From the NCBI GenBank assembly GCA_964487665.1, contig CAZARR010000006.1:1-52050 (forward strand): a DNA stretch of 52,050 bases, read 5' to 3'. Origin of the DNA: an uncultured Pseudomonadales bacterium. Lineage in GTDB: Bacteria; Patescibacteriota; Microgenomatia; UBA1400; MFAQ01. Both the position numbers and the translations under genes were made by a program. The notes beneath the pieces are model-generated. The model saw nothing but the letters and a program-made list of their open reading frames with translations. It did no database searches and was not told the origin of the DNA. Shown here one piece after another: positions 16,886 to 49,995 of this stretch (position 1 is its first letter; each line of letters starts with the position of its first letter).

Positions 16886-17529
16886 CACTTAATTCGACGA
16901 AACCAATCGTCTTGACCGAGTAACCATTGCTTGAGCTGGTAGATCGAGTAGAGGCCTATTGAATAGTGTTTCTGGTCATATGGATTTAATGAAAATCGTA
17001 GGAGTTCTTCTCCTGTATCTATAAAGGTTCCCTGTGGTCCGATTCCTTTCTTGGTATATGCCCAACTTGATCCTAAATCCCACCAGCCGAATTGTTGGTG
17101 GTTATTATTGGTGTTGGCTCTGTTGACCAAGGCTTGGTAGATACGTGCAAATTCAGCGAATCCAGCAAGCAGATAATTTCTGAAATGGTCTTCTTCGTTA
17201 CCCCAAGATTCCCAACTGCGACGGGCAATTAACATCGCCTGAACCGCCCCGTACCATACGTTGGGTTCAAGTCCATAATCATTGGGTTCTTTAGCTTTAA
17301 GTCTTATTCCCCCTGGGTCGCTAAACCATTGATAATCCTTATCCACAGCAAGTGGTGGCATTCCTCCCCATATACAATAGAACCTCAAGGTATCTATGCT
17401 TGGTCCAGGACCTTTACCTTTATGTAAAAGTGCCAGATGGTATAAAAATTCTCTTTGACCGGGATATCGGTAAAAGCCGAACTCATGTCTGGGCATTTCA
17501 TACATGTCTACAAGCTCAGGGCGTCTCAT
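16885..17529 (-). CDS. Hypothetical protein
   Basis: 214-aa aromatic-rich ORF convergent on tRNA-Thr. Confidence 0.65.
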   Translation of the reverse strand: MRRPELVDMYEMPRHEFGFYRYPGQREFLYHLALLHKGKGPGPSIDTLRFYCIWGGMPPLAVDKDYQWFSDPGGIRLKAKEPNDYGLEPNVWYGAVQAMLIARRSWESWGNEEDHFRNYLLAGFAEFARIYQALVNRANTNNNHQQFGWWDLGSSWAYTKKGIGPQGTFIDTGEELLRFSLNPYDQKHYSIGLYSIYQLKQWLLGQDDWFRRIK

Positions 17530-20075: not shown

Positions 20076-20693
20076 TCAAAAGATAATCAGTCTGGCAAAG
20101 AAGTTGATGATGGGGCTGATAAGTAGATTAGCTGCTGACCTTCCCGAAAATGACGGTAGAATGAGGAAAATTAGCAACAAAGTGCCATAACGGTTCATAA
20201 TTGACTCCCATTCGTAGGCCAGGTCACGGGGCAAGATGCCAGTGACAATTTTGGCACCGTCGAGGGGGTGAATGGGGATCAAATTGAAAATAGCTAGGGA
20301 AAGATTAATGATGATTATGGGGATCAGTATTGGGTAAAAATATGGCGGTAGGACAAGTTTACCGATAATTGAAATTGTTGTGGCCAAGAGTACATTGCTT
20401 ACTGGTCCGGCGAGTGAGATCAGGGCGGCATCACGGCGGGGTTGTTGCAGATTATAAGGGTCAAAGATCACTGGTTTACCCCATCCAAATCCGGCTAGTA
20501 ACAACATTAAACTTCCCAAGGGGTCCAGGTGTCTACGTGGATCTAGGCTTAATCGGTCCTGACTGCGGGGAGTGGGGTCACCCAAACGATCGGCGGCGAA
20601 AGCGTGAGAATACTCGTGAATAGTGATAGCCAAAACCAGGCCAATAATCGACAGAATAAATGAAATGGGTGATGAAAATAGGGTTGAGAGCAT
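20076..20693 (-). CDS. Site-2 protease family (peptidase M50)
   Basis: HEYSH and NLIPIHPLDG. Confidence 0.93.
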   Translation of the reverse strand: MLSTLFSSPISFILSIIGLVLAITIHEYSHAFAADRLGDPTPRSQDRLSLDPRRHLDPLGSLMLLLAGFGWGKPVIFDPYNLQQPRRDAALISLAGPVSNVLLATTISIIGKLVLPPYFYPILIPIIIINLSLAIFNLIPIHPLDGAKIVTGILPRDLAYEWESIMNRYGTLLLIFLILPSFSGRSAANLLISPIINFFARLIIF

Positions 20694-25980: not shown

Positions 25981-26763
25981 ATGAAAAAAACAATTCTGTC
26001 TACCCAACAAAGCGCCCTTCTTGAGGATTTAATCGTCAAGTATGGCCAGATTGTCACTTCCGAGCAGATCTATGCCCAAGGAAAGGACGTGTGGGATCAA
26101 CAAGTGGCTAAAAACGTTGTAACCAGGCTCACTCGCAATGGGTGGCTGATTCGGGTAAAGCGCGGCTTATATGCTATTTCTGATCTAAGCAACCGCGGGT
26201 TTTTGTCTCTCTCGCCCTCTGTAGTGGCCCATCTTCTGGTTCGTGACTCCTACGTCTCTTTTGAGTCAGCTTTGGCTTATCACGGCATGTTTGACCAGCT
26301 TACCAACAAAACTATCTCTATTTCTCAGGTTCAACATAAGTCAGTTCAACTGCAATCAGTTGAGTACAGCTTTGTGAAAGTGCTGGACAAGTGGTTTTTT
26401 GGTTGGGAAGAGGTGGGTATTGATAATAAGACGGTGCGGATGGCCACTGCCGAAAAAGCCTTAATTGACATGATCCAGTTCCATAAAAGTAAATACACCG
26501 TTGATTTAGTGGTGGAAAAGCTCTCTTTGTATAAAGGCTCACTTGACCTACAAAAAATGATTGAGTACTTGGGCAAGATGTCTTTGGCCACCATTAAGAC
26601 ATTTGGTTTCCTGTTTGACCTTTTAGGGATTGATTCTGGTGATATTTATAATCAAGTTAAGTTGAAAGGCACCCACTTGATGTTTTCTGGAGATGCCAAG
26701 TTTAACCCCAAGTGGCGACTCTATTACGACGAATACTTTGATAAATATCAGTCAGTCAAATAG
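25981..26763 (+). CDS. abiEi: Type IV TA antitoxin AbiEi family
   Basis: N-terminal wHTH (LTRNGWLIRVKRGLY), YVSFESALAYHG, ATAEKALID. Confidence 0.88.
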   Translation: MKKTILSTQQSALLEDLIVKYGQIVTSEQIYAQGKDVWDQQVAKNVVTRLTRNGWLIRVKRGLYAISDLSNRGFLSLSPSVVAHLLVRDSYVSFESALAYHGMFDQLTNKTISISQVQHKSVQLQSVEYSFVKVLDKWFFGWEEVGIDNKTVRMATAEKALIDMIQFHKSKYTVDLVVEKLSLYKGSLDLQKMIEYLGKMSLATIKTFGFLFDLLGIDSGDIYNQVKLKGTHLMFSGDAKFNPKWRLYYDEYFDKYQSVK

Positions 26764-26768
26764 TCCCT

Positions 26769-27527
26769 ATGCTTACAAGGCAACAACTCGAAATCATCAA
26801 TCGTAAAAGCTTGCGTTATCCCTTACACATTGCCGAAAAGGATTATTTTCTGGCTCTGGTCATGCAGATTATCGCGGCTTCCTCGACTGGCAAAACTCTT
26901 ATTTTCAAGGGTGGCACCGCCTTGCATCACTGTTACTTGGACCAGTACCGTTTTTCTGAGGACTTGGACTTTTCTTCGAACAAAACGCCATTACCTATCG
27001 AAGATGTGCATAAGATCTTTGAAACAACCGATTATTTGAGTATCAAGAAGGACTATCTTTCCAATGCCACCATCAAACTCGAGAAACTCCAATACACCGG
27101 ACCATTAATCCAGCCCAACTCTCTGAAAGTTGAAATTGATTTCTTGCAAAACGTTTTACTGCCTCCTCGAACCTTGGCTTATCACAACGTTTGGGGTGTG
27201 GATTTTATGGTGGTCGTCATGGATATCAAAGAAATCTGTGCCGAGAAAATCCGAGCTATGAGCGATCGGGCTCGTTACCGTGATTTCTACGATATCTACT
27301 TACTTTTGGAAAAGTACCAGTTGGACTTGGGTGAAATTGTTTCCTATGTTAAGCAAAAAGAGGTCCGTCGACCAATTACCAAAGCCAGCATCCAAACCAA
27401 CTGGCAGGTGATTGCTACCGAAAAAAAGCAGGAAATGGGTCAGATTTACTACTCCAAGCAGGTTGAGGATAGTCAGATGGAAGCACTAATTAAAAGTCTA
27501 CCTTTTGATAGTATTATGGCTGCTTAA
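26769..27527 (+). CDS. abiEii: Type IV TA toxin AbiEii nucleotidyltransferase
   Basis: AEKDY, FKGGTAL, RFSEDLDF, EKIRA...RYRDFYDI. Confidence 0.92.
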   Translation: MLTRQQLEIINRKSLRYPLHIAEKDYFLALVMQIIAASSTGKTLIFKGGTALHHCYLDQYRFSEDLDFSSNKTPLPIEDVHKIFETTDYLSIKKDYLSNATIKLEKLQYTGPLIQPNSLKVEIDFLQNVLLPPRTLAYHNVWGVDFMVVVMDIKEICAEKIRAMSDRARYRDFYDIYLLLEKYQLDLGEIVSYVKQKEVRRPITKASIQTNWQVIATEKKQEMGQIYYSKQVEDSQMEALIKSLPFDSIMAA

Positions 27528-46708: not shown

Positions 46709-46768
46709 AGATTGTAAATAATAAATGTTGTGATTTGAAGATAAATAGGGTTGTTGTATAATGCGCGC

Positions 46769-47338
46769 GTGGGGAAAGAGTTTAGTCCGATCGGTTTTGT
46801 ACCGTTAGAATTACGCGATCAAGAGGGTCAAGTGGTGCTGGCTGAGAAAAATTTTCCTGCTCTGGAAAAGATTATCGAGTCTGGTTTGCTGCCACCAAAA
46901 GAGATTTGGAGGTTGTTTCATGGGGTTCACAACTCAGTTTGGGGTAGTATATTTTTCCCTCATTTTCGTGTTGATACCGCATTAGACATTGTGGGAATTC
47001 GATTGTCAATGGCTTATGATGATATACGAAGAGATCGAAAACGAGCTTTACATATAGAACGCACAAATAATTATTTGGCTGCCTGCAAGCAAGCATTCGG
47101 TGCTTTTGTCTGGGTAGAGATTGGGCACGGGGGCTTTGAAAGGTTCGATGGTGAGCATAATTACGAATTTGACCTTGGTCGGATAACAGCACAAGGTTTT
47201 CGTGTTTCCGGGCCAGACAATTACAAAGAGACATTACGTTATTTTGCAGAATATAGACGCAAGATGGAAATTAAAAAAGATTTATTTACTAGATACCATC
47301 TGGCCTGGTTTTTGAATCGGTTGGCTGGTGTAAGATAG
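46769..47338 (+). CDS. Hypothetical protein
   Basis: TATAAT 6 nt before GTG 46769. Confidence 0.65.
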   Translation: MGKEFSPIGFVPLELRDQEGQVVLAEKNFPALEKIIESGLLPPKEIWRLFHGVHNSVWGSIFFPHFRVDTALDIVGIRLSMAYDDIRRDRKRALHIERTNNYLAACKQAFGAFVWVEIGHGGFERFDGEHNYEFDLGRITAQGFRVSGPDNYKETLRYFAEYRRKMEIKKDLFTRYHLAWFLNRLAGVR

Positions 47339-47345
47339 TGGTTAT

Positions 47346-47906
47346 ATGGATCAACAGATAAGAGATTCGTTGACAAGTAAGTTAGAAAAAGTTGTTGAGA
47401 TAGTTCGCGAGGACTTGGCATCGATAAGGACCAGCCGTGCAAAGCCAGATTTGCTCAGCGGGATTGATGTCATAGCCTATGGTGGACAAAAAATGAAGTT
47501 GTTTGAGCTGGCTACTATTACTGCTCCTGATAATAATATGCTGATTATTTCTCCTTGGGACAAAGGAGTAATACAGGATATTGAGAAAGCAATTACCGTC
47601 AGTAACTTGCAGTTGAACCCGACTGTAAGCGGGGATTCGATCAGGGTGGTTATACCGGCTTTGACCGAAGAAAGGCGTCGCGATTTTGTCAAATTGCTGC
47701 ACCAAAAGTTGGAAGCTGGCCGGGTAATGCTTAGGCAGGTTCGCCAGGATGTAAAGGAAGAGGTCGAGGCTAGTGAAAAAAAGGATGGGGTTAGCGAAGA
47801 CGATGTCGAAAGGGTGTTGGAACTAATGGAAAAGACGGTTCACGATTATGGGACAAAGCTGGATGAGATGGGGCGAGTGAAAGAATCAGAGATAATGCAG
47901 GTGTAG
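47346..47906 (+). CDS. frr: Ribosome recycling factor
   Basis: IRTSRA, IEKAI..SNLQLNP, PALTEERRRDFVK. Confidence 0.96.
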   Translation: MDQQIRDSLTSKLEKVVEIVREDLASIRTSRAKPDLLSGIDVIAYGGQKMKLFELATITAPDNNMLIISPWDKGVIQDIEKAITVSNLQLNPTVSGDSIRVVIPALTEERRRDFVKLLHQKLEAGRVMLRQVRQDVKEEVEASEKKDGVSEDDVERVLELMEKTVHDYGTKLDEMGRVKESEIMQV

Positions 47907-47961
47907 GGCCAAATTCGAGGTCTGGAAATTTTTTTCGAGGGATATTATAATGCAGGTTATT

Positions 47962-48003
47962 GTCCGCGGTCGCGTTATGGCGACGCGATTGGCGGACTTT
48001 TTT
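47962..48003 (+). terminator. Long hairpin plus U6 (frr terminator or attenuator of the tRNA-like locus)
   Basis: GTCCGC/GCGGAC outer and GTCGCGTT/GACGCGAT inner stems, then TTTTTT; lies just downstream of TATAAT 47946-47951. Confidence 0.6.
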
Positions 48004-48006
48004 CGT

Positions 48007-48077
48007 GAACACCAACGCCGAATGGAGGCGGCCGGGCATCGTATGCCGGTGGGCTGGTTCGATTCCAGCTGGTGTTC
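48007..48077 (+). tRNA. Non-canonical tRNA-like RNA, anticodon-position CGU (Thr-reading) with atypical acceptor stem
   Basis: GAACACCA/TGGTGTTC 8-bp acceptor, D-loop GG, AT-CGT-AT loop, GCTGG-TTCGATT-CCAGC T-arm. Confidence 0.6.
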
Positions 48078-48155
48078 CTTCCCGCGAAAGCGGGCGTGCG
48101 GGGCAAACCCGTCTGCGTGACAACGATGTACACGCGGGGGTTTGCCCCAAATTAG

Positions 48156-48233
48156 TGGGGGGTCGTCTAAACGGCCTAGGACGGGCGGGCATCTGGTTGT
48201 CTGCCTATTAGGGTTCGAATCCCTACTCCCCAG
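48156..48233 (+). tRNA. tRNA-Gln(CUG)-like RNA with elongated anticodon arm
   Basis: T1-A72, G73, AT-CTG-GT loop on a 7-bp stem with a bulge, 3-nt variable region, TAGGG-TTCGAAT-CCCTA. Confidence 0.7.
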
Positions 48234-48236
48234 TCA

Positions 48237-48280
48237 GTCCCTCCTTCGCGCCTTTGGGCGTGGGGGAGGGACATTTTCTT
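48237..48280 (+). terminator. Intrinsic terminator closing the tRNA-like locus
   Basis: 16-bp stem GTCCCTCCTTCGCGCC/GGCGTGGGGGAGGGAC followed by ATTTTCTT. Confidence 0.75.
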
Positions 48281-48302
48281 TGTGCTAGAATTACTCGAGT
48301 AA

Positions 48303-49388
48303 ATGCAGATTTTGATTTTTTTGTTGATATTGTCAGTATTGGTTTTGATTCATGAGCTAGGTCATTTTGCTGCTGCCAGGATTTTTGGTATTAATGTTGA
48401 GGAGTTTGGGATCGGCTTACCCCCTCGGGCACGAAAGTTATTCAGTCAGGGGGGGACGATTTTTAGTTTGAATTGGTTACCGATAGGTGGTTTTGTCAGG
48501 CTAAAAGGAGAAGATGTAGAAGAAGAGCTGGCGGGAAATGACGTATTTTACAAAAAGAAATTGTGGCAAAAAATGACGGTGGTTTTGGCAGGAGTAGTTA
48601 TGAACTTTTTGTTGGGGGTGGCAATTTTTGGGGCTATTTATTCGTATTTAGGAATACCGACAAAAGTTGATCGAGTACGCATTACCGAGATTGTGCCCGG
48701 TAGTCCGGCCGATGAAGCTAAAATAAAGCCTGAGACTTATGTCTTTCGATTTGTCGGACCGAGTGGGGCGGGGGTTGATGTCAAAGACACAAAGTCGTTA
48801 GTTGAACTGATTAACGAGAACAAAGGAAAAAAGATTACGTTATTGGTATCGGGTGAAAAAAATCCGCAAGAATATCAATCGGTGATGCTTGTAGCACGTG
48901 AGAATCCTCCTGCGGGGCAAGGAGCGTTGGGGGTGGTTTTGTCCGATGTGGAACTGGTCAAATATCCATGGTGGCAGATGCCTTTTCGGGGAGCAAAAAT
49001 TGGTTTATCAGAGGCCATCGCCTGGGGCAAGGAAATTGCTCAGGGTTTGGGGGGGTTGGTGGTCAGGATTTTGTCGGGCAAAGGAATTGGCTCGGACGTG
49101 GCTGGACCAATAGGAATTTATCAGGTTAGTGGGCAGGTGACCAAGTTTGGATTGCTTGCTACTTTGCAGTTTGTAGCAGTGTTGAGCATCAATTTGGCGA
49201 TATTAAACATAATGCCCTTTCCTGCCCTAGACGGCGGAAGAGGAGTGTTTATGCTACTCGAAGGGCTACTCCACAAGGATGTCCGGCGCAAGGTTGAGGC
49301 AAAAATCAATATGGTGGGTATGGCGGCACTAATTGGCCTGATGGTACTGATTACCATGAGAGATATATATAAATTGGTGGTGAAATAA
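48303..49388 (+). CDS. rseP: RIP metalloprotease RseP with PDZ domain
   Basis: IHELGH, NWLPIGGFV, GSPADEA, NIMPFPALDGGR. Confidence 0.93.
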   Translation: MQILIFLLILSVLVLIHELGHFAAARIFGINVEEFGIGLPPRARKLFSQGGTIFSLNWLPIGGFVRLKGEDVEEELAGNDVFYKKKLWQKMTVVLAGVVMNFLLGVAIFGAIYSYLGIPTKVDRVRITEIVPGSPADEAKIKPETYVFRFVGPSGAGVDVKDTKSLVELINENKGKKITLLVSGEKNPQEYQSVMLVARENPPAGQGALGVVLSDVELVKYPWWQMPFRGAKIGLSEAIAWGKEIAQGLGGLVVRILSGKGIGSDVAGPIGIYQVSGQVTKFGLLATLQFVAVLSINLAILNIMPFPALDGGRGVFMLLEGLLHKDVRRKVEAKINMVGMAALIGLMVLITMRDIYKLVVK

Positions 49389-49776: not shown

Positions 49777-49995
49777 ATGAGTTTAGTAGTACAGAAAAAA
49801 AGCGGACAAAGTCAACAACAATTAATAAACGAGTTTAGGCGCTTAACTTTCGAAGACAAGGGTTTGGAAAAGGTAAAGGAAGTAGCCATGGGTGGTTATT
49901 TGAAACCTTCAGCCAAAAAAAATATTAAAAACAGAGAGTGGCGAAAGGAAAACGAGAAGATACGCCGCCGTAATCGCCGAGAAAGGGGTAAATAG
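49777..49995 (+). CDS. rpsU: 30S ribosomal protein bS21 (divergent)
   Basis: LINEFRR, YLKPSAKK, basic tail; upstream of yqeY. Confidence 0.7.
   Translation: MSLVVQKKSGQSQQQLINEFRRLTFEDKGLEKVKEVAMGGYLKPSAKKNIKNREWRKENEKIRRRNRRERGK

Follow-up and report, generated by a model that had tools for sequence, protein, structure and literature searches.

The interval between frr and rseP on contig CAZARR010000006.1 contains two genes with the shape of transfer RNAs (tRNAs), which we refer to as TL1 and TL2, together with a promoter-like site, GC-rich hairpins and a terminator. We analyzed this locus (47923-48291) within a stretch of 52,050 nucleotides (nt), referred to throughout as the window. Both genes retain the body of a tRNA and depart from canonical tRNA in the anticodon arm. 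Comparable arrays occupy the same slot, directly upstream of rseP, in related genomes, and in an orthologous pair of such arrays the bodies are constrained while the anticodon arms are not. The features of the locus and the adjoining rseP gene are as follows.

47923-47951, plus strand: sigma-70-type promoter-like site, TGGAAA-17-TATAAT (motif scan, 10/12 consensus matches).
47962-47997, plus strand, followed by U6 at 47998-48003: leader hairpin with a 15-base-pair (bp) stem and one bulge (minimum free energy (MFE) and centroid structures, sequence).
48007-48078, plus strand: TL1, tRNA-like gene (cloverleaf; ARAGORN default call of tRNA-Thr(cgt) at 48008-48078).
48081-48094, plus strand: short hairpin CCCGC-GAAA-GCGGG with a GNRA tetraloop and no U tract (sequence, fold).
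48100-48148, plus strand: 49-nt spacer hairpin with 11 perfect bp (GGGGCAAACCC/GGGUUUGCCCC) and an inner helix (sequence, fold).
48156-48233, plus strand: TL2, tRNA-Gln(CUG)-derived tRNA-like gene (hand-checked cloverleaf).
48237-48281, plus strand: intrinsic terminator with a 16-bp stem (48237-48272), a 4-nt loop and the tail AUUUUCUUU (terminator scan, fold).
48283-48291, plus strand: extended -10 element of rseP, TGCTAGAAT, 12 nt before the start codon at 48303.
48303-49388, plus strand: rseP (Peptidase_M50).

The elements that a first-pass annotation had listed, with their positions, were all recovered where it had placed them. Two of the hairpins have the form of an intrinsic terminator, a GC-rich stem directly followed by a U tract: the one at 48237-48272 with AUUUUCUUU, and the leader hairpin at 47962-47997 with U6. 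The terminator scan skipped the latter owing to its bulge, and the call was made from the fold and the sequence. With its U6, the leader hairpin looks like an intrinsic terminator and could act either as the frr terminator or as an attenuator ahead of TL1. The earlier suggestion of one composite non-coding RNA is weakened to this extent, as the first hairpin and U6 are as easily a frr terminator or attenuator as part of a single RNA. Because rseP has its own extended -10 element, the tRNA-like unit would be a separate transcription unit. The element lies only 12-15 nt ahead of the rseP start codon in the window and in L001, L309, L313, L317 and L318, which suggests that the 5' leader of rseP is very short or absent.

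The 336-nt stretch folds to -177 kcal/mol, compared with -137 +/- 5.5 kcal/mol in shuffled sequences (z = -7.35; 0/100 shuffles as good). The GC fraction is 0.56-0.63 over the locus and about 0.44 in the flanks, and the spacing between cloverleaf and hairpin is 3-7 nt. A search of the locus with Rfam 15 (4227 models), at the gathering thresholds and at E <= 10, gave only weak chance-level matches besides the tRNA clan, and blastn against phage and plasmid records gave no match. We rejected the idea that the hairpin and anticodon-arm sequences are spacer-like matches to viruses, since three 19-21-mers taken from them, including one from an arm of the 49-nt spacer hairpin, have no exact match in viral contigs. 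Just past the promoter, TAATGCAGGTTATTG (47948-47962) resembles the start of rseP, TAAATGCAGATTTTG (48300-48314), either as a duplication trace at an insertion point or by chance; the likeness is too short and too imperfect to be read as the target-site duplication of an insertion event.

TL2 carries the features of a bacterial tRNA-Gln, a set of elements long established as defining Gln identity: U1-A72, a Glu/Gln-type D arm with U13.G22 (GUCU-AAACGGCCUA-GGAC), a short variable loop and a YUG anticodon, here CUG at 48193-48195, to which G73 and G10 can be added. Its core is intact (U8, A14, G18G19, A21, A15-U48), its T arm is canonical, and all of its stem pairs are formed (23/23; acceptor 7/7, D 4/4, T 5/5). 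The anticodon arm consists of a 7-bp stem, or 8-9 bp if G48183.U48206 and A48191-U48198 also pair, and an 8-nt loop, AUCUGGUU. The variable loop has 3 nt, the connector between acceptor and D stem has 2 nt, and no CCA is encoded. The cloverleaf has an energy of -30.5 kcal/mol, compared with -35.9 kcal/mol for the MFE structure. ARAGORN does not call TL2 at default settings, and the best match in the Rfam clan scores 17.2 bits; after deletion of two stem pairs and one loop base, 5 nt in total, ARAGORN at default calls tRNA-Gln(ctg). Judged by these features, TL2 combines the body of a tRNA-Gln(CUG) with an anticodon arm enlarged by 5 nt. In TL2, 29 nt separate the D arm from the T loop; among Glu/Gln-type D arms in viral contigs this distance is 25-26 nt in nearly all cases and at least 28 nt in only 1/122. 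An RNA built in this way cannot plausibly decode. A metagenome scan with the pattern AGGAC..TYTG..GGGTTCRAATCC was poorly specific, and the matches listed were tRNA-Leu anticodon arms.

TL1 departs from the canonical form in other places. Its T arm is canonical (GCUGG-UUCGAUU-CCAGC), and its anticodon loop, AUCGUAU, has the canonical 7 nt, with CGU at 48040-48042. Position 8 is A in either register, the anticodon stem contains a G.G mismatch or a bulged G, nucleotide 26 is missing or paired, the variable loop has 3 nt, and CCA is again not encoded. The RNA can also be drawn with a 1-nt connector, a 6-layer anticodon stem broken by one G, and a 2-3-nt variable loop. Of its 21 stem pairs, 20 are intact (acceptor 7/7, D 4/4, T 5/5), and its cloverleaf energies lie between -25.9 and -30.5 kcal/mol, compared with an MFE of -34.4 kcal/mol. 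TL1, like TL2, has no match to the canonical tRNA model RF00005 at the 29-bit gathering threshold; its top match in the clan is the selenocysteine tRNA (tRNA-Sec), at 29.7 bits. As a Thr isoacceptor of this genome it has the CGU triplet and lacks the shared G1-C72, C2-G71 and U73: its acceptor reads (G)AACACC with discriminator C, while the Thr(UGU) and Thr(GGU) tRNAs of the window start with GCC and have U73. An 8-bp acceptor with G-1:C73 is possible. We considered this pair as a His-like aminoacylation identity and rejected it, as it occurs once in about 18 units, as by chance. Decoding by TL1 might be possible, given that its broken or elongated stem and 3-nt variable loop recall the pyrrolysine tRNA (tRNA-Pyl) and the mitochondrial tRNA (mt-tRNA) for Ser(UCN), mt-tRNA-Ser(UCN).

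Taken as a pair, the two units have the body of a canonical tRNA (RF00005), with T loops UUCGAUU and UUCGAAU and the D-loop GG, and both depart from the canonical anticodon arm, which has a 5-bp stem, a 7-nt loop, U33, a purine at 37 and a 4-5-nt variable loop. U8, the partner of A14, is present in TL2 and replaced by A8 in TL1. Neither is a tRNA-Sec (RF01852), as the scores of 29.7 and 17.2 bits lie below the 47-bit gathering threshold, there is no long variable arm, and the anticodons are CGU and CUG. ARAGORN finds five tRNAs in the window: Trp, Thr-UGU, Tyr, Thr-GGU and TL1. The first four score 58-69 bits with the Rfam tRNA model, and against these the ARAGORN and Rfam checks bear out the description of TL1 and TL2 as non-canonical; they are the lowest-scoring of all units. 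The canonical T loops, D-loop GG, C34 triplets, A32, U33 and U38, and short variable regions (3 nt) that the first-pass annotation had reported are likewise present in both cloverleaves. Across the two units 43/44 stem pairs are intact despite several insertions and deletions (indels), and the near-complete stems, canonical T loops and G18G19 form an argument against free decay.

The same annotation had proposed a dedicated class of non-canonical tRNAs sharing a common recognition element, CGGGCAUC. The class survives in part, in that the units are not ordinary and arrays recur in seven other genomes; the common motif does not, as CGGGCAUC is absent from all seven other arrays. Within the window CGGGCATC occurs four times, where 1.27 occurrences are expected, and two of these lie at the equivalent place in the TL1 and TL2 anticodon arms. 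A scan of viral contigs for CGGGCATC followed by a T loop found only unrelated tRNAs and tRNA-like elements, none resembling TL1 or TL2. Two other groups of sequences came up in passing. One is a conserved viral tRNA-like family of the form ..CCTGACTGAAACGGGCATCGAGTACGTGG..GAAGGTTCGATTCCTTC..AATTTCAGT.., whose members have a T arm and nested helices; it was a chance find in a motif scan and is present in L009 (7981-8021, minus strand), L011, L016, L018, L021 and about 20 more IMG/VR loci. The other is a near-identical tRNA-Leu(UAA)-like 3' part, AGGACTTAAGATCCTCTGGCG.AGGCC..GTGGGTTCRAATCCCACCCCCCGCACC, in many metagenome contigs between L189 and L308 (for example, L192, 13895-13939, minus strand), where the preceding CTAAGACAAGGGGG-type sequence is unlike a normal 5' half.

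To place the locus in its clade, we compared it with 17 further genomes of a Collierbacteria-like clade, reached through their Frr or RseP homologues, which together with the window make 18. As the first-pass annotation had recommended, the frr-rseP interval was examined in these relatives, and tRNA-like arrays were found directly upstream of rseP in 7/17 (L001, L309/L310, L311, L313/L314, L316, L317 and L318), or 8/18 with the window. In several array-less genomes, among them the Collierbacteria reference GCA_001774675.1, frr lies next to rseP. The number of cloverleaves per array ranges from one to four; GC-rich hairpins separate or follow them, and a terminator is present. Near-consensus promoters, TTGACA-17/18-TATATT, stand in several arrays at a place equivalent to the site in the window, and in L309/L310, as in the window, promoter and tRNA-like gene are separated by a structured, U-rich leader. 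A sequence of the form TGnTA(G/A)(A/G)AT lies 15-20 nt before the rseP start in 6/8 array-bearing loci. The locus in the window has the make-up of such a slot array, namely its place upstream of rseP, an own promoter, intact bodies, aberrant anticodon arms, hairpins and a terminator. Sequence homology between the window and the other arrays is confined to the T arm, where TL1 and L001a are identical over 17 nt. Between frr and the array, opposite-strand insertions of different, unrelated genes are found in L310 (1907-2374, minus strand; RNHCP domain) and in L001 (1707-3215, minus strand; NAGPA phosphodiester glycosidase), which indicates that the frr-rseP interval is variable in the clade.

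We segmented 17 slot units by hand and used this segmentation for all counts, because a MAFFT alignment misaligned TL2; the Trp tRNA, segmented as a control, is left out because its segmentation was faulty. Every one of the 17 has a complete D stem (4/4), 16 have a complete acceptor stem (7/7) and 13 a complete T stem (5/5), while a canonical anticodon arm is present in only 6-7/17. Single mismatches in the bodies affect the acceptors of L316_1 and L317_1 and the T stems of L001a and L318_1. The aberrant anticodon arms have 6-, 8- or 9-nt loops (UCGUAA, UUUGUACC, AUCUGGUU, UUAACC) or 6-7-bp stems; L311_2 is among those with an 8-nt loop. Other oddities of these arms include G33 or A33, a pyrimidine at 37, and the triplets ACA, AGU and UCA. 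In an additional unit (L313, 2776-2872) the D loop measures 17 nt and the anticodon arm contains an inserted hairpin. Four arrays (TL1, L001a, L309 and L318_2) have A8, a base that bacterial tRNAs otherwise very seldom carry at this position.

Two slot units deserve mention in their own right. The tRNA at L001 3407-3474 scores 48 bits and combines a canonical anticodon arm bearing UCA with A8A9 and a very short variable loop; it could be a UGA-reading or suppressor tRNA, although the lineage is thought to use the standard code. The tRNA-like unit at L318 1607-1679 has G3.U70 and A73 (the alanine identity pair), a UGGGAGAGC D loop and the aberrant loop UAGGUUA (A33, U37). An Ala-like identity for this unit, L318_1, was rejected, as the combination occurs once among about 18 units, which is chance level.

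Constraint was measured on one orthologous pair of arrays from the relatives, L313/L317. Their 4-fold degenerate sites differ at 25-46%. One of the tRNA bodies differs at 2/56 positions (P ~3e-6 under the 4-fold rate) and the other at 10/57 (P ~0.01-0.02), the latter with a compensatory change in its D stem. Between the anticodon arms there are differences at 6/19 and about 10/18 positions, in addition to changes in length. The promoter, terminator and rseP leader are 98-100% identical, and the hairpin region between the tRNA-like units is unalignable. A similar pattern appears in the series L313_2, L317_2 and L001b, in which the acceptor GCGCAUY and the cloverleaf are kept via compensatory changes while the anticodon arm passes from 5 bp/7 nt through 6 bp/7 nt to 7 bp/6 nt. 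Measured against the 4-fold sites, the L313/L317 bodies are under purifying selection. By the same comparison, the relatives maintain the bodies and not the anticodon arm, which is the reverse of what is seen in decoding tRNAs and unlike free decay.

The window belongs to a bacterium of the candidate phyla radiation (CPR) with a small genome. Its best relatives in a collection of 5.8 billion proteins are from Collierbacteria or 'Patescibacteria group' assemblies, with 65% identity for Frr and 61% for RseP. The local gene order is rpsB, tsf, an open reading frame (ORF) without assignment, frr (47346-47906), the tRNA-like locus, rseP, a HIT protein gene, a small basic ORF of 72 amino acids (49777-49995), yqeY and ybeY. 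The ORF between tsf and frr (195 amino acids, 46751-47338, plus strand) has no Pfam match and stands where pyrH is the usual occupant; unannotated ORFs are also found there in L310 and L311. Besides the full-length rseP, the window holds a second, short Peptidase_M50 ORF (204 amino acids, 20076-20690, minus strand) that matches the C-terminal part only. An ORF pair 21 kb from the locus (25981-27524, plus strand) encodes an AbiEi antitoxin (PF13338) and an AbiEii nucleotidyltransferase toxin (PF08843), a type IV toxin-antitoxin/abortive-infection pair. Relatives of the AbiEii toxin family modify tRNA 3' ends, and no link between the pair and the tRNA-like locus was found. Pfam scans of about 36 window ORFs for candidate partners showed no aminoacyl-tRNA transferase, Ro60, RtcB or reverse transcriptase. 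The extra T-loop-like motifs at 17036 and 17264 fall within an ORF and were set aside as chance matches. In the window, 43% of Gln codons are CAG and 13% of Thr codons are ACG.

Given these observations, the best-supported reading is that the slot is a tRNA operon, several members of which would have been released from decoding and yet kept as tRNA-shaped RNAs. TL1 and TL2 would then be expressed, tRNA-processed, non-decoding tRNA mimics, to which we assign a probability of roughly 40%. The anatomy of the locus, its non-canonical make-up, the return of such arrays at the slot in relatives and the difference in constraint between bodies and anticodon arms are observed directly; transcription, processing, the absence of decoding and the role as mimics are what we infer. 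On this model, the frr-rseP interval would be an independent mini-operon with its own promoter and terminator that yields two tRNA-derived RNAs. Transcription would start from the promoter at 47923-47951, with the hairpin at 47962-48003, U6 included, acting as frr terminator and/or attenuator. Ordinary tRNA-processing enzymes would cut the transcript: RNase P would generate the 5' ends, RNase Z would generate the 3' ends, which lack CCA, and CCA would then be added. The products would be two stable L-shaped RNAs and very stable spacer hairpins. Selection would retain the tRNA body, that is, the acceptor/T-arm stack and the elbow formed by D and T loops, and the anticodon arm would be a freely evolving strut without decoding geometry, clearly so for TL2 and doubtfully for TL1. 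Instead of reading codons, the mimics may engage a partner that binds the tRNA body, as competitor, decoy or carrier.

Several observations weigh against this model. With 7 nt, U33, CGU and A37, the anticodon loop of TL1 is canonical in every respect, and the elongated or broken anticodon stem, 3-nt variable loop and short connector of TL1 together resemble tRNA-Pyl and mt-tRNA-Ser(UCN), which decode (PMC7609411). TL2 has no homologue in any other array. The databases hold no close relative of this genome, the nearest being those at 65% (Frr) and 61% (RseP), and constraint on TL1 and TL2 themselves is argued by analogy with the relatives. With 10/18 genomes lacking an array, any function must be dispensable. 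The slot of L311 holds a canonical Phe(GAA) (67 bits) and a canonical Thr(CGU) (69 bits), so the slot also serves as a real tRNA operon. Finally, the L313/L317 triplets stay in the Thr and Ile boxes, and NGU(A) triplets recur in seven slot tRNA-likes, which would not be expected of an anticodon free of all constraint; together these two points hint at some residual anticodon constraint, for example, through synthetase recognition.

The alternative that survives best is that TL1 and TL2 are decaying redundant tRNA duplicates, pseudogenes of a tRNA operon with birth and death of its members, now functionless in this genome. The patchy presence of the arrays, lesions that are idiosyncratic and different in each genome, the single mismatches in the acceptors of L316_1 and L317_1 and the T stems of L001a and L318_1, and the lowest scores of all units for TL1 and TL2 are what such decay would leave. 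In addition, C34 isoacceptors are dispensable where U34 isoacceptors exist, and the window has Thr(UGU). Against decay stand 43/44 intact stem pairs in units that have undergone several indels, orthologous L313/L317 bodies far more conserved than 4-fold sites, and promoters and terminators conserved at 98-100% in the same pair. We consider it unlikely.

Less probable again is that both are unusual working tRNAs, TL1 a compact-core tRNA-Thr(CGU) and TL2 a tRNA-Gln(CUG) with an expanded arm, which would read ACG and CAG as C34 isoacceptors. On this reading, TL2 might possibly promote +1 or quadruplet reading through its loop. TL1 is called by ARAGORN at default, and its loop AUCGUAU has U33 and A37; on the other hand, TL1 lacks the G1-C72, C2-G71 and U73 of the two Thr tRNAs of the genome and has A8. 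TL2 keeps the Gln identity set (U1-A72, G73, G10, the Glu/Gln-type D arm and CUG), but its two extra stem pairs on the loop side, combined with an 8-nt loop, go beyond any known decoding architecture. An elongated anticodon stem with a 3-nt variable loop is found in the functional tRNA-Pyl and mt-tRNA-Ser(UCN) (PMC7609411), and 8-nt loops are found in frameshift-suppressor tRNAs (PMC4238358). The codon usage of the window (CAG and ACG both in use), the strong predicted promoter and the canonical tRNAs in the L311 slot also fit working tRNAs. In the relatives the anticodon arm is the least conserved part, with U33 and the purine at 37 often violated, the opposite of decoders.

It is improbable that the tRNA-likes are merely processing or stability modules and that the product is the co-transcribed hairpins or the whole composite RNA of about 320 nt, in the manner of gammaherpesvirus tRNA-microRNA units or tRNA-spacer small RNAs: very stable hairpins do lie 3-7 nt from each cloverleaf, cuts at the tRNA ends would free a 77-nt two-hairpin spacer, and GC-rich hairpins occur between or after the tRNA-likes in all other arrays, but hairpin sequences are unconserved and cannot be aligned even between L313 and L317, where the bodies are conserved, they have no Rfam match, their arms have no match in viral contigs, and only 2-14 nt separate successive tRNA-likes in L311 and L313/L317.

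Returning to non-decoding mimics as the preferred reading, its extension to the clade is more tentative. A CPR lineage may keep, at a fixed slot, a strongly transcribed family of tRNA-shaped RNAs whose bodies are conserved and whose anticodon arms, freed from decoding, turn over. Such a family would be a natural class of non-decoding mimics or scaffolds, and might act as decoy or competitor for enzymes that target or bind tRNA, or as a scaffold presenting variable hairpins. If the RNAs are expressed and do not decode, the slot would be a chromosomal, clade-wide case of tRNA-shaped RNAs kept for a role outside translation, of which, to our knowledge, only scattered cases are known in bacteria. 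It would also provide a natural data set for separating the parts of a tRNA on which processing and stability depend from those that serve decoding. Should the RNAs decode instead, the known limits of the anticodon arm would widen to take in a stem of 7 bp with an 8-nt loop and a variable loop of 3 nt. In both cases standard tRNA finders miss or mis-score such genes, which affects tRNA inventories, inference of the genetic code and estimates of completeness for genomes of this kind.

Extra tRNA-shaped genes that are chromosomal, kept, and little or not used for decoding are found in Staphylococcus (cell-wall tRNA-Gly) and in Bacillus cereus (tRNA-Other). In these non-proteinogenic or regulatory paralogues the anticodon arm is canonical and the changes fall in other parts, for example, at the contacts with EF-Tu. 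At this locus, by contrast, the alteration lies in the anticodon arm, and neither a linked transferase nor a T-box was seen in the window. The YrlA Y RNA (PMC4201824) and the tRNA-like domain of transfer-messenger RNA (tmRNA) both keep the elbow of acceptor, T arm and D loop and carry another helix at the position of the anticodon arm. They differ in that there is no Ro60/Rsr gene among the scanned window ORFs and no Rfam match to the YrlA family, and in that the locus is without a tag reading frame, an Rfam match or an ARAGORN call for tmRNA.

Phage tRNAs that evade anticodon nucleases (PMC10264068) resemble the slot RNAs in being accessory genes with variation concentrated in the anticodon loop of otherwise normal tRNAs; they are phage-borne and have 7-nt loops and working anticodons, whereas here the lengths of loop and stem vary and the locus is chromosomal, with no similarity to phage or plasmid sequences found. 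Frameshift suppressors such as SufJ (PMC4238358) share with TL2 and L311_2 an 8-nt anticodon loop on a normal body, but these are mutants of essential tRNAs with a 5-bp stem, while TL2 has an extended stem and a short variable loop. In the compact-core tRNAs that decode, tRNA-Pyl and the mammalian mt-tRNA-Ser(UCN), a 6-bp anticodon stem is combined with a 7-nt loop, a 3-nt variable loop and a one-nucleotide connector between acceptor and D stem (PMC7609411). TL1 can be drawn with an elongated or interrupted anticodon stem, a 2-3-nt variable loop and a shortened connector of this kind, TL2 has the 3-nt variable loop with a 2-nt connector, and G18G19 and the T loop are kept in mt-tRNA-Ser(UCN), TL1 and TL2 alike. 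TL2 differs by its 7-9 bp and 8-nt loop and TL1 by 5 bp with a bulged or mismatched G; neither has an evident dedicated synthetase, and their anticodons are ordinary sense triplets. The allo-tRNAs and the transposon-associated allo-tRNA-like pseudogenes (PMC7609411) combine 8/4 or 9/3 acceptor/T stems with a long variable arm, compared with 7/5 and short variable loops in the slot RNAs. Like the slot RNAs, they form non-canonical families from metagenomes in which one body type carries many anticodons, and some members of the allo-tRNA family are non-functional in translation (PMC7609411).

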